DNA of 64,000 nucleotides, taken from contig OX597816.1 of NCBI GenBank assembly GCA_951406725.2, positions 41,416,001 through 41,480,000 on the forward strand, written 5' to 3'. Of this stretch, positions 20,808 to 63,075 are shown piece after piece. This DNA comes from Octopus vulgaris. Lineage: Eukaryota. How positions within the stretch are numbered: the stretch's first letter is position 1; each line of letters starts with the position of its first letter. The translations under genes and the position numbers were made by a program. Under the pieces are notes generated by a model. That model ran no database searches and was not told the origin of the DNA. It was given only the letters and a program-made list of their open reading frames with translations.

Positions 20808-22216
20808 GGTAAACAGTAAAAATAATTACAGACATGGACAAGAACATGAAACGCCACAGAGACGACACAAGAACCACAGGACGGGACATTCGAAGCCCTC
20901 AGTCATCAGTCAAGAACCAGATCATCTTAGCAATTTCGGCTGATTAATCTTGAGATTGCTCCGATATGGGCAGCCCGCCACGGGAAATCTAAGCCAAGTG
21001 CATTAGATCCCCTGGAAGAAAGCTTCGAATGTATACAACACGAGGACGGAAAACGAACGAAGTACACGAACAAAAATACAGAATACGTGACAACAATAAG
21101 AATACAAAAACGTAAAAACAATAACGGTAAAAATAAAGTATAAAAAATAAATAAACAACAAAACAAAACCAGGACGTAGGACAAGGGTCTTTCGACAGGA
21201 CGAATTGAGCATGGGGCTGGCTTATGAAGTTGTGCCTAATGGCCACAGGGAGACGAACAAGTACGTGTTGCTTCAACGGCTGCTGGAACGAAAAGAGCGC
21301 TCAACAGCGGTCAGCGGTCACGTGAGAACAAAAGACAAGAGAAAGGGACAGATGAAAAGAGAGAGAAGGTGGACGAGGGAGGAGAAGAAAGAGACAGATC
21401 GAGGGGGCTGGAGGTGAGAGAGATAGAGAAACGTAGAAGGGGGGGGGAAACGGATGGAGAGGGAAAGAAAGGAGGGGGAATAAGGTAGGAGAGAGAGAGA
21501 GAAAGAAAGATTAAGAGTCGTATCAATGCTTGAGAAAAAAATATACTTATCGTATAAGGACAATTGTGGATACGTAGCCGCCGATTATATAGGTAAACAG
21601 TAAAAATAATTACAGACATGGACAAGAACATGAAACGCCACAGAGACGACACAAGAACCACAGGACGGGACATTCGAAGCCCTCAGTCATCAGTCAAGAA
21701 CCAGATCATCTTAGCAATTTCGGCTGATTAATCTTGAGATTGCTCCGATATGGGCAGCCCGCCACGGGAAATCTAAGCCAAGTGCATTAGATCCCCTGGA
21801 AGAAAGCTTCGAATGTATACAACACGAGGACGGAAAACGAACGAAGTACACGAACAAAAATACAGAATACGTGACAACAATAAGAATACAAAAACGTAAA
21901 AACAATAACGGTAAAAATAAAGTATAAAAAATAAATAAACAACAAAACAAAACCAGGACGTAGGACAAGGGTCTTTCGACAGGACGAATTGAGCATGGGG
22001 CTGGCTTATGAAGTTGTGCCTAATGGCCACAGGGAGACGAACAAGTACGTGTTGCTTCAACGGCTGCTGGAACGAAAAGAGCGCTCAACAGCGGTCAGCG
22101 GTCACGTGAGAACAAAAGACAAGAGAAAGGGACAGATGAAAAGAGAGAGAAGGTGGACGAGGGAGGAGAAGAAAGAGACAGATCGAGGGGGCTGGAGGTG
22201 AGAGAGATAGAGAAAC
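20808..22216 (-). mobile_element. Non-coding TA-anchored element family P1 as a partial tandem (two ~625-bp identical units, period 784 bp), pLTR-like
   Basis: 20808-21432 equals 21592-22216, and the ORF track is repeated at an offset of 784. It abuts (TA)n at 20807 and contains a structured RNA domain with CUGAUGA and GAAA. Confidence 0.85.
20886..21032 (-). ncRNA. Candidate permuted/pseudoknotted hammerhead ribozyme (second copy 21670-21816)
   Basis: The minus strand reads AGCAAUC-UCAAGA-UUAA-UCAG-CC-GAAA-UUGCU...UCUUGA-CUGAUGA-CUGA, enclosed by the 11-bp stem ACAUUCGAAGC/GCUUCGAAUGU. Confidence 0.6.
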
Positions 22217-22599
22217 ATGTGTGTGTGTATGTATGTATTTATGTATAACTGTGTATGGGGGTGTTTGCTTCGCAACCGGCGCTGGTTTGTTCCCATCAAC
22301 CACTTCCGGAAATGTGACAAGTATGTCATACCAGATGCCCCCATGCATCACTGGGATCTATTCAAGACGGTATTTCAACGACTCGAATTCCAACAGCTGA
22401 ATCAATCCAAAACGAGATTAAGATAATCAATATATATATATATATATATATATATATATATATATATATATATATATATATATATATAATGGATCATAAA
22501 ACGAATAGTTTATACCAGGTAGCTTACTGATAAAGCACGGTCACTTTCAGAGTGATCGTTAAGTAAATAACAAAGGAAAATATATATACAGAAGATCTA

Positions 22600-22833
22600 T
22601 ATATATATAAACAATTTTCCTCCGTCTGGCTTTTTCTCTCTCTACAAAACAGAAAGTTGCCTTATGGAACAGTCATTTTAACGAGATTTTTTTTATTTAT
22701 TTATCACCTGACAAGATACATCTGCACCACCGTATATTCCTGAGACAGAGGAGTCGATGCTAGTTGTGTCGAAACAATTGTTGTGATTAATAATATATTC
22801 TCGTATATTCCATCTTCTATTTTTCATTTGTTT
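22600..22833 (+). mobile_element. Family P2 second copy with type I hammerhead (22703-22787)
   Basis: ATCAC-CTGACAA-GATACATCTGCACC...GATGCTAGTTGTGTC-GAAAC-AATT-GTT-GTGAT, with TA tracts on both sides. Confidence 0.75.
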
Positions 22834-23589
22834 TATATATATATATATGTGTGTGTATGTATGTGTTTATGTATGTATTAGTACACTTCCAGAGAATTTT
22901 TCTGCATAAAAAAATGTAATCGGTATTACAGATCGATAATTAATATGTTGTCAAGTATACTTATCGGAAATTCAAGTAAGATAATATCTAGCAAAATTTT
23001 GAGCTAAATTTAATTTAAATTTGTTATTTGAGAAAATATAGTGTTATATAGATAAATGATAATATAAGAATGTCTATCACAGCAATTTTAGGGTTATTCC
23101 CGCTCTGATAGCCGTGTTTATTGAGAGCCTGATAAATTCTAGAGAGCATCCCGTATAGGCGTGTACTGCAAAACACTTAGCAAAAAATAGAAAAATACAT
23201 TCAAAATAAATAGTGAAGTACTTCAATAAGAGATGAAAGCCACTCGGCAGCGTCGGGAGCGTTGCTAAATAGGTATTTCTGCTCTCTCTGGGGCTCGTCA
23301 GTACGAAGTATCGACTGGCAACAATATACTAAGAGACAAACAGAGAGGAACAATAATTTAAACATGAGTGATGTGGTAATTAGCCGGCAGATTGAATAAA
23401 AATTCGATATTCGCGACAGAAGCAGTGTTAGTCCACAAGAGAAAACAGTTCATCACAAATAAAGTAAGGAACAACTTTGAAAACTTGAAAAATGTTATTT
23501 GTCTCTAGAAAATAACCCTTGTAGACATATAGCGTTCAGAAAACTCAGAAATATACTGTTTATCTGTTACTTAGATCATAAAAAAACTG

Positions 23590-23830
23590 GGGTCATGCAG
23601 GAACACCACGTTCCAGAGAGTTTGGGTTTCACTTCTGTAATGTATTTTGCTGAAGAAGCGAGTTGGAACGAGCCGATCTACTTTGTGCCTCTTGCCGCAA
23701 TATGGGTTCATCTTGGATTTCAGGTAGAAATTTGCAAAGATGCGTTTTGAAGGTCTCCATATCTACACCTCGGAAATCTCGGAGGTTGTTTGGCAGGATG
23801 TTAAACAATTGTGGTCCCCGTAGCATAGGC
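23590..23830 (-). mobile_element. CR1/L2-group LINE 3' fragment
   Basis: LRGPQLFNILPNNLRD..FKTHLCKFLPEIQDEP, similar to the 4003-4266 peptide. Confidence 0.75.
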
Positions 23831-60480: not shown

Positions 60481-60646
60481 TTCTTCTTCTTCTTCTTCTT
60501 CTTCTTCTTCTTCTTCTTCTTCTTATTATTATTATTATTATTATTATTATTATTATTATTATTGTTATTATTGTTATTATTATTATTATTATTATTATTA
60601 TTATTATTATTATTATTATTATTATTATTATTATTATTATTATTAT

Positions 60647-61780
60647 TCAGTAGTTTTATTTTTATTTTTATAGCGTGCTTTCACTTCACTACCGAGCGCA
60701 GCTCTGTGTGCCTTGGGTATGTGCTGTGATTTGTTGTGATGCTCTGATGGTTATTGTATGGAAAGTGTTCTGCGTAGGATGTGTGCAGTGCCTAGTAGTG
60801 CAATTTTCTGTATGTTATATGTGTTTGTAAGTCCTGGTGTTTTTGTTATGTATTTGTCTGAATATTTTTTTATCATGCCTAATGCACCTACTATGAAAGG
60901 AATTGTTTGTTTTCAGATTCCACATTCTAGTTACCTCTATTTCCAGGTCTTTGTATTTTGAGAGTTTCTCCATTTCTTTTAGAGACACGTTGTCATCTGC
61001 CGGTACTGATACATCAATTAGAAAGCATTTTTTTTCTTCATGGTCTCTGACAACTATATCTGGTCTGTTGGCCTTAAATTCTCTATCTGTGTGTATCGGC
61101 ATATCCCAGAGTATGGTTGCTTTCTCGTTTTCTGTGACCTTTTCTGGTGTGTGCCTATACCATCTATTTTCTGTTGTTATTCCATAATGTTGGCATAGCT
61201 TCCAATGTATGTAAGTTCCAACTCTGTCATGTCTGTGAATATATTCCTTCTTAGCCAGGACTGGGCAGCTAGAGATAATATGATTTATTGTTTCTTTTCC
61301 ATCTCCACATATTCTGCAGTTACTCGTAATATTTCTTTTCATTACATGTTTTTGGTAATTTCTGGTGGGGAGGCTTTGGTCTTGTGCTGCAATTAAAAAT
61401 CCCTCTGTTTCTGCTTTGAGTCCTGAGCTTCTCAACCATTGCTGGGATTTTTCTTTGTCTATTTCTTTTGCGTTTAGTTTAGTGCAGTATTTACCATGAA
61501 GGGGCTTTTCTTGCCATCGTTTTATCATGGTTCGTTGCTGTTCTATTTTTAGTTTGGATTTCATTTGTTTTATAGCTTTTGTTGTTTCTTCATCATCTTC
61601 TTCTTCTTCTTCATGTTTATTAGGTGGTATGATTTCTTGTTTGTATTTGTCAGCTTCCTTAAATACTGAGAACAGTTTTTTTTTCTCGTGTTTTGCCGCT
61701 ATCTGGATCAGTTTTCCTTCCTTCTGAAGTAGATATTTTTGCAGTCCTATGGTGGTTATTTTATAGTAGTTTTCCAGCTG
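60647..61780 (-). mobile_element. R4/Dong-type element, near-identical sibling of 58634-59915, in (TAA)n
   Basis: CCHC knuckle and NRPDIVVRDHEEKKCFLIDVSVP (PD..D endonuclease), with the same 3' end CAGTAGTTTTATT. Confidence 0.92.
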
Positions 61781-61937
61781 TATTATTATTATTATTATTA
61801 TTATTATTATTATTATTATTATTATTATTATTATTATTATTAATATTATTATTATTATTATTATTATTAATATTATTATTATTATTATTATTATTATTAT
61901 TATTATTATTATTATTATTATTATTATTATTATTATT

Positions 61938-63075
61938 TTAGTCTCTTTTTCAAATCTCTTTCGTCACACATCCAGTGTTCTCTTCAGTTACTCTTTATTT
62001 CACGTGTCTCTTCTTGTTCCGCTTATTACATTTTATTTCTCCGTATTCTTATCTGCCTATGCGGTTGCAGCTGTATCTGTTTATCTGTGTGTGCTTACGC
62101 ATGCGTGTATGTACAACTGATTAGTAAGTGTGCTTACTATGTGTGCTTTGCGTGCTTGTATATGTCTTTCCATACTACGCTGTACCCGTGTCTTTTTTGT
62201 CTATTTTGTTTATTTATTCCCTTCCTTACTCTCTCTTCATTCGTCAGAATGCGCAGTGTGGTGCAGTGGTGCGTGTTATTATTCCATTCATGTTTTCTGT
62301 TGAAACTTGATCTGTGTATTACAACATGTGTCCTCCGTAATCTGTCTGAATATCATGTCTCTTCTATAATTGCTAATATCATAACATCTACGTTATTAAC
62401 CGTGCCTCTATGTTCCAAACTGAGCATGTTGGTGGAACACTGACGAGCGTTTCTTCTCCTTTAGCGTTCACCTATCCTCTCACCTGTCCTACGTGTTGTC
62501 TCCAAATTGTATTGTCTGGTTTCTGCACCCTCCATCACTACAAATTATACTGAAGACTACATTTCTGAAAGTTTACCTGTGGATTCATGGTACACTCCAT
62601 ACAATTGCTATACATGCAGGGAGTACTTTCAGATACATATGTTGTACAGATCAGGGATGGATTTTACGGGGTCCCCGGGCTCTCTACTACTTTAATTTGT
62701 AGATTCGTCATACCTAAGGTGTTTCTAAAAAGATGTGATAATTCGCCCCTAAGAAAAGATAAATCTATAGATAAATATAATAAATATTTAAAAGACATGA
62801 ATGCAAACAGTATAATAAGTAAACCCATGAACACACACACAAAACACACATACTAAAAGCATAGACCCCCCACAGACGCACAGACACAGATACAGACGAG
62901 AGCTCATAGAAATATACTGATGGCACTCCAGAAAGACAACACGGAATAAGCAGAAAAAGAGGAACGCGAGGGATAAAAGTCTTTGAAGCGGTCACAGGCT
63001 GTATGGCAAAAGAACTTGAACAAAAAAGGAAAATAAAAATAAGTTGAAATGACGACCAAATATATAATGCGTGCA
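61938..63075 (-). mobile_element. Old PLE 3' fragment (decayed GIY-YIG) with probable inverted 3' copy
   Basis: Minus-strand remnants GELSHLFRNTL..LQIKVVESPG, ETTRRTGERI, SSVFHQHA, RQITE and RKHEWNN. An HHR-like CTGAAGA..GAAA lies at 61950-61990, and 62940-63030 resembles the reverse complement of 61940-62030. Confidence 0.55.

Follow-up and report, generated by a model that had tools for sequence, protein, structure and literature searches.

Insertions that carry a tail on only one of two copies are an established feature of Penelope-like elements (PLEs), and the pattern itself is not new. In the Penelope elements of Drosophila virilis and Adineta vaga, partial tandems and head-to-head inversions are described, as are tails of 31-37 bp, optionally present on one of two inverted pseudo-long terminal repeats (pLTRs), and visible target duplications (PMC2377424, PMC3846280). 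PLEs of the Hydra clade that encode an endonuclease (EN+) have CxxC, CxH, RWK and DKT motifs and a CxCx5C linker, and nearly all of them insert into (TA)n (PMC8557442). For the Poseidon PLE of Anolis, it is reported that both target strands are cut and extended in vitro, that a dimer is predicted, and that reverse transcription starts at two internal RNA sites without homology to the cut DNA, the tail being the sequence between them; RNA beyond these starts is required, and the ends of RNA-seq reads also fall there (PMC11167929). In the endonuclease-less PLEs Athena and Coprina, RNA repeats are complementary to the target. The origin of tandem and inverted PLE insertions is called 'undefined' in PMC8557442 and is unvalidated in PMC11167929. 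Here we describe two PLE insertions of one family, each with a tail of about 150 nt on one arm only, in a 64,000-nucleotide stretch of Octopus vulgaris DNA (assembly GCA_951406725.2, contig OX597816.1, positions 41,416,001 to 41,480,000; hereafter, the window).

The octopus insertions are like the D. virilis and A. vaga elements in their inverted arrangement and optional tail, but here any target duplications are hidden by (TA)n. They are like the Hydra-clade EN+ PLEs in having a GIY-YIG endonuclease with CxxC and CxH motifs around E and N, a hammerhead motif and a (TA)n target (PMC8557442). They differ from that clade in that the family has a Ser/Asn-rich stretch in place of the cysteine linker, which its closest relatives are also missing, in that the tail is about 150 nt long, and in that the family is known here without its reverse transcriptase (RT) region. 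With the anole PLE they share a two-ended tail downstream of the hammerhead, an AT-rich target and a start without target homology; however, the anole PLE belongs to another clade, its tail is 30-40 nt long, and arm polarity is not treated in the main text of that report (PMC11167929). The first start past the ribozyme cut lies at about 85-92 nt in the anole PLE (from +26 and +111-118), as against 65-68 nt here. The complementarity seen in Athena and Coprina corresponds to the mode of priming that a first-pass annotation of the window had proposed, but the octopus family encodes an endonuclease and has no such complementarity at its short end.

Two head-to-head insertions of one family

The first insertion, A (35102-37983), lies between a (TA)n target array on its left (35059-35101) and a second array on its right (37983-38031) that also borders an unrelated, minus-strand PLE at its 3' end. 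The left array is followed by a tail of 154 nt (35102-35255, minus strand), present on the inverted arm only, and then by the inverted arm itself (35256-36352, minus strand), which holds the C-terminus of the endonuclease, the 3' untranslated region and a hammerhead motif (35322-35395) and has a 5' reach of 1096 nt. An unpaired middle (36353-36886, plus strand), which includes the region coding for the Ser/Asn-rich linker, is continuous with the tail-less arm (36887-37983, plus strand). The tail-less arm stops 65 nt beyond the predicted cleavage site of its hammerhead and has 1 nt in common with (TA)n. Self-comparison of the window shows that the two arms of A are identical at 1094 of 1097 positions.

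The second insertion, B (49942-50368), is shorter. It consists of a 149-nt tail (49942-50090, minus strand) whose terminal base is the same as that of the A tail, an inverted arm (50091-50211, minus strand) with a 5' reach of 119 nt, and a tail-less arm (50212-50368, plus strand) with a 5' reach of 155 nt, a hammerhead motif (50225-50298) and 2 nt in common with (TA)n. The arms of B are identical at 121 of 121 positions, and the inner junction shows about 3 nt of microhomology with A as the reference. In a comparison that spans the arm, the tail and some adjoining TA bases, B matches A at 268 of 277 positions, indicating that the two belong to the same family. Because B carries the tail of A, the tail is element sequence. 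In both insertions the arms are head to head and point outward inside (TA)n.

The two ends of the tail behave differently. The tail ends at the same base in both copies, and the tail-less ends of A and B lie approximately 2-5 nt apart. Hairpins are predicted in the A tail (z -3.1), and for each of the two tails only 1 of 200 shuffles folds into an equally stable structure. A short motif that precedes both ends of the family has eight matches in the window, six of which are these ends (2.2 expected); it was chosen post hoc, and in a sliding test it ranks ninth of about 1770 positions, so that it is a weak lead. The arms also have a polarity, since in both insertions it is the tailed arm that has the shorter 5' reach (1096 versus 1630 nt in A, 119 versus 155 nt in B) and the tail-less arm that holds the unpaired middle. 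Agreement of two cases from one family with a stated side would arise by chance 25% of the time.

To identify the family, we examined the 5'-truncated open reading frame (ORF) at 36349-37248 (plus strand), whose C-terminus resembles a GIY-YIG-type endonuclease of the Hydra clade. Its last 141 residues have 2697 relatives at E<=0.001, the longer of which have RT-like motifs upstream. When aligned with 15 relatives taken from the 150 best, the translation of A shows the conserved E and N flanked by CxxC and CxH motifs, and these motifs are present in 135 and 120 of 149 relatives, respectively. One longer relative (P0031) has the DKT and W-K motifs, and several relatives have a CxCx5C linker. This linker is absent from A, P0001-P0003 and P0007, and 50 of 149 relatives, many of which are fragmentary, show a loose form of the pattern. 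Pfam returned no match for the ORF and a weak GIY-YIG match for one of eight relatives (E 0.031), and a word-based search with the A endonuclease against longer proteins found none among 188 candidates. A motif scan predicts a type I hammerhead ribozyme with a palindromic helix III and a long insert in helix II at 37844-37917 (plus strand), and the same motif in the other two arms given above; its architecture is as described in PMC4209133. Local scans with Rfam did not detect this hammerhead. Both insertions are 5'-truncated and have inverted pLTR arms and a one-ended tail, as PLEs do. Judged by these sequence features, the family is an EN+ PLE with a Hydra-clade-like endonuclease, and we file it as Hydra-like only, because the CxCx5C linker is missing from A and its closest relatives.

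The region upstream of the endonuclease (ORF 36349-36830, plus strand) is a Ser/Asn-rich stretch of more than 100 residues, which is reminiscent of the Asn-rich inserts described in Adineta Penelopes. The missing cysteine linker has been proposed to aid targeting to (TA)n, yet both copies of the family lie in (TA)n.

The first-pass annotation had described the one-sided tail in five insertions from four unrelated families: A, B, C (55360-55744), D (20808-22216) and, as a probable case, E (61938-63116). Only part of this description holds. Two of the five, A and B, are solid cases and are one family: both are inversions of a PLE in which a single arm bears a tail, and their short end reflects a start or junction internal to the RNA. 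Another two, C and D, are ambiguous, and E is contrary, having the same end on both arms. None of C, D and E has a significant PLE marker. As for the statement that the tail lies on the upstream copy, 'upstream' is clearly defined only in A and B; the statement is automatic in a partial tandem such as D, and in a hairpin as symmetric as C there is no upstream copy to define.

Origin of the one-sided tail

On balance, we favor the reading that A and B arose as ordinary insertions of a single PLE family in head-to-head arrangement, made by two primings at two internal starts of reverse transcription. The element's endonuclease would nick a (TA)n array on both strands, with reverse transcription primed at each nick. 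The ribonucleoprotein, rather than base pairing with the target, would set the start at either of two positions inside the RNA, located 65-68 and 220 nt beyond the predicted cleavage site of the hammerhead, with about 150 nt between them. Microhomology of a few bases would then link the two 5'-truncated complementary DNAs (cDNAs) head to head, and the tail would be the stretch of RNA between the two start sites. The behavior reported for the anole PLE (PMC11167929) accounts for A and B with no added assumptions. In L1 twin priming, too, both target strands prime and the inversion is joined by microhomology. The arms of a twin-primed L1 are non-overlapping segments of the RNA, whereas both arms of A and of B copy the same 3' region.

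The anatomy of the insertions contributes several observations to this reading. Because the arms overlap in the 3' region and point outward, that region was copied twice. The alleles are the same in both arms of each insertion and differ between A and B, and because the arms agree so closely (1094/1097 and 121/121) while A and B do not (268/277), each insertion points to one source RNA or locus. The tail end is fixed, whereas the short end is slightly scattered and has no target homology, and the inner junction of B shows its about 3 nt of microhomology. The scatter of a few bases at the short end is similar to the start window of the anole element (111-118) and so fits a start of reverse transcription, and the structured tail fits the need of the anole PLE for RNA downstream of the start. 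Nicking of both strands and the pair of start sites are taken from the anole PLE and would extend to this family by analogy. The first-pass annotation took the end of the tail to be the true 3' end of the RNA, a view that the anole PLE does not support, as both of its tail ends are starts of reverse transcription and downstream RNA is required (PMC11167929).

Several points weigh against the double-priming reading. Its basis is only two insertions, which belong to the same family, and the in vitro results were obtained with an element of the Poseidon clade whose tail is 30-40 nt long, not with a Hydra-like one. Neither copy is full-length or extends past the tail, and the lack of target homology is a result for the short end. 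Homogenization of the arms after insertion could also yield the same alleles, and trimming of a longer intermediate by the endonuclease would leave an identical structure.

A more specific form of this reading, which we regard as doubtful, is ordered double priming on a single RNA, in which the inner start would be used first and the second strand would start on the tail about 150 nt downstream. The PLE RT is not known to have an RNase H. The first round would leave an RNA:cDNA hybrid, so that only the structured, single-stranded tail would be left for the second start, and synthesis of the second cDNA would displace the first but stop before reaching its end. If this is true, the tailed arm should never exceed the tail-less arm in the 5' direction and the alleles should be the same, as in both insertions here.

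With regard to C and D, it is a serious possibility, if not quite an even one, that neither is a tailed element; this would be compatible with double priming in A and B. C (55360-55744) is a hairpin whose arms (55449-55594 and 55601-55744) are identical at 124 of 143 positions and separated by a 6-nt spacer, with a putative tail of 98 nt. It could be a symmetric hairpin, either a PLE palindrome or a miniature inverted-repeat transposable element (MITE), whose left target has decayed to a short TA tract and whose supposed tail is 98 bp of flanking DNA that leads up to the next microsatellite. D (20808-22216, assigned to the minus strand by assumption) is a partial tandem of 1.8 copies of a 784-bp unit, a direct repeat identical at 631 of 631 positions, with a six-base TA run at 21586-21591; its orientation and the tail boundary at 21510 are based on composition only. 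It could be a partial tandem or rolling-circle copy of the 784-nt unit, and in such an array sequence would continue past any end. D matched none of the phage records. We rejected D as a long terminal repeat (LTR) element or terminal-repeat retrotransposon in miniature (TRIM) on inspection, since such elements have TG...CA ends and a purine tract on a given side, and D lacks these ends and has its purine tract on the wrong side.

Self-BLAST found no other copy of C or D, and no second copy of the putative C tail, within the window. A motif scan, Rfam, PLE profiles and tblastn gave neither a hammerhead nor a PLE protein signal for them, although small non-coding remnants could lack both. Their tails are unstructured, as 55 of 200 shuffles for C and 106 of 200 for D fold as well. 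The window holds 113 alternating T/A runs of at least 8 nt, and 7% of its positions outside arrays have a TA array no more than 100 bp upstream. The TA tract of C may be a decayed left target and its tail flank, but the 7% figure does not favor this and modestly favors a real tail. The identity of the D copies suggests one recent event, and the composition of D is by eye close to that of the PLE 3' ends of the window, both of which count against the untailed reading of D. C and D may follow the same route as A and B, or they may have captured, or may adjoin, an old TA target.

For A and B themselves, a possible but unlikely origin is fold-back followed by trimming, in which a single cDNA begun at the tail end would form the inverted arm by priming itself, after which the endonuclease would cut the tail from the arm made first and attach that arm to the target. 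By this route the short end would be a DNA cut site rather than a start of reverse transcription. Such a route accounts for the same alleles, for a tail-less arm with the unpaired middle (2/2) and for the tight hairpin of C, and it predicts the polarity seen in A and B; the short end does sit in AT-rich sequence. Self-priming has been proposed in PMC3846280, and resolution by the endonuclease as the origin of tails in PMC8557442. However, the anole element begins reverse transcription directly at both tail boundaries on the nicked target (PMC11167929), and fold-back with trimming requires a free or second primer, which is hypothetical.

The first-pass annotation had proposed that, in unrelated families, priming is telomerase-like, by pairing of the cut (TA)n target with a UA tract inside the RNA, and that copying from the true 3' end of the RNA follows by a second priming or a jump; this we consider very improbable. 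If it were so, the tail-less ends should match the target, but A and B share only 1 and 2 nt with (TA)n, values reached at 81-85% and 40% of long-copy positions, respectively, which is the level of chance. Gapless 10-nt matches to (TA)n are similarly unremarkable (4/10 for A, reached at 60% of positions, and 5/10 for B, reached at 35%), and the A arm has longer TA runs that are not used as its end. The tracts quoted for A and B are AT-rich without complementarity to the primer, and RNA complementary to the primer at the start site, as in Athena and Coprina, is absent from both. In C and D the end does fall at the longest stretch of alternating T and A that the longer copy contains (8 nt shared in C, as at 4% of positions; 6 nt in D, 0.9%), and endonuclease-less PLEs attach to telomeres aided by reverse-complement repeats (PMC8557442). 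Nevertheless, C and D are only candidate PLEs, E is contrary, initiation by the anole PLE in vitro is non-homologous (PMC11167929), and the Fisher test gives p=0.70 for A and B and p=0.02 for A to D, the latter driven by the unverified C and D. In addition, the ends abut (TA)n, so that captured flank or a read-through tail would place a TA tract there without annealing. Annealing to an internal UA tract is therefore not supported where PLE identity is shown. Finally, pure fold-back from a sense RNA is rejected, as the tail could not land on the arm made second.

Insertion E and neighboring repeats

E is best explained as an older, two-tailed pair that has been split by long interspersed elements (LINEs). 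Its arms (61930-62217 and 62767-63039) are inverted and identical at 186 of 266 positions, with none of 300 shuffles as good. The left arm runs into the (TAA)n of a LINE block (58546-61937, minus strand; three nested pieces of one family in (TAA)n arrays) and resumes at 58550-58474 (minus strand). This displaced end matches 63038-63116 at 58 of 76 positions (0 of 1000 shuffles as good) and is the top match among 848 window tiles (score 63.5; next non-overlapping tile 37.5). The nested LINEs have thus displaced the end of E by 3.4 kb; two of their pieces are 96.7% identical over 1234 bp. Because both arms have the same end, E contradicts the one-sided rule. The identity of E as a PLE is suggestive, its best GIY-YIG profile match being weak (i-E 0.064 in the region and 7.3 over the whole window). 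Rfam in a local scan found no hammerhead in E, and profiles and tblastn no significant PLE marker. The LINE pieces we take to be Dong/R4-like; the ORF of this LINE gave no match in PDB. Dong is reported to target TAA (PMC3812793).

The window is repeat-rich, with several retroelement families and 51 (TA)n arrays of at least 12 nt. A nearly full-length PLE at 38032-40875 (minus strand), with RT, a CX2-5CxxC linker and a GIY-YIG domain, is Neptune/Nematis-like, has (TA)n at both ends and lies tail to tail with A across the array at 37983-38031. It carries a U3-A8 hammerhead variant at 38087-38118, and it alone gave a sub-threshold HH9 match in a local Rfam scan (38068-38132, E 0.0026). Three decayed relatives of it lie on the plus strand (16932-18283, 29315-30006 and the RT fragment 50852-51382). 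Near the PLEs at 38032-40875, 16932-18283 and 29315-30006 we found no second arm in the compared stretches or by self-BLAST, their best scores being matched by 219, 33 and 27 of 300 shuffles, respectively. Since these three protein-verified PLEs are single-armed, two-armed insertions are not the rule in the window.

Another family is represented by three short copies on the minus strand (10381-10471, 15658-15857 and 41481-41682) whose ends lie at (TA)n and at the same site, to within 1 nt. It has a hammerhead-like motif by eye only, and a local Rfam scan of 41481-41700 found no ribozyme. For the whole window, no hammerhead is among the best 150 of 212 Rfam matches, which are driven by microsatellites. 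Pairwise comparison of 3' regions from A, C, D, E and two further families showed no sequence in common (15 scores of 16-35, given without a null). Further repeats are a PIF1 helicase (Helitron-like) remnant at 42717-45470, in which 252 bp are duplicated in inverted orientation (42835-43086 versus 44200-44451); a tandem pair of 270-bp copies (87%) at 30163-30703, each preceded by (CA)n that is long at the first and short at the second; an imperfect hairpin (82%) at 2733-2934 without flanking (TA)n; and the C-terminus of a 5'-truncated LINE RT at 32370-33299 (plus strand), which begins directly after a (TA)n array.

Length and polarity of the tail

A tail of 30-40 bp is a descriptive trait of PLEs, and the tails of A and B, at 154 and 149 nt, fall outside it. 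The notable points in these insertions are a tail of about 150 nt, four to five times the published length, and a testable polarity seen in both. Within the accessible parts of the literature, including PMC4209133, PMC9977147, bioRxiv 10.64898/2026.07.22.740005 and PMC13282606, we found neither a 150-nt tail nor a rule relating the tail to arm length; PLE reviews of 2005-2006 and Repbase may hold both.

A tail of this length makes both ends easy to score. If the side of the tail tracks arm length throughout the genome, the models would be narrowed to ordered double priming or to fold-back with trimming. Ordered double priming, if true, would explain PLE inversions and their tails in one step, and it could be checked from genome sequence alone.

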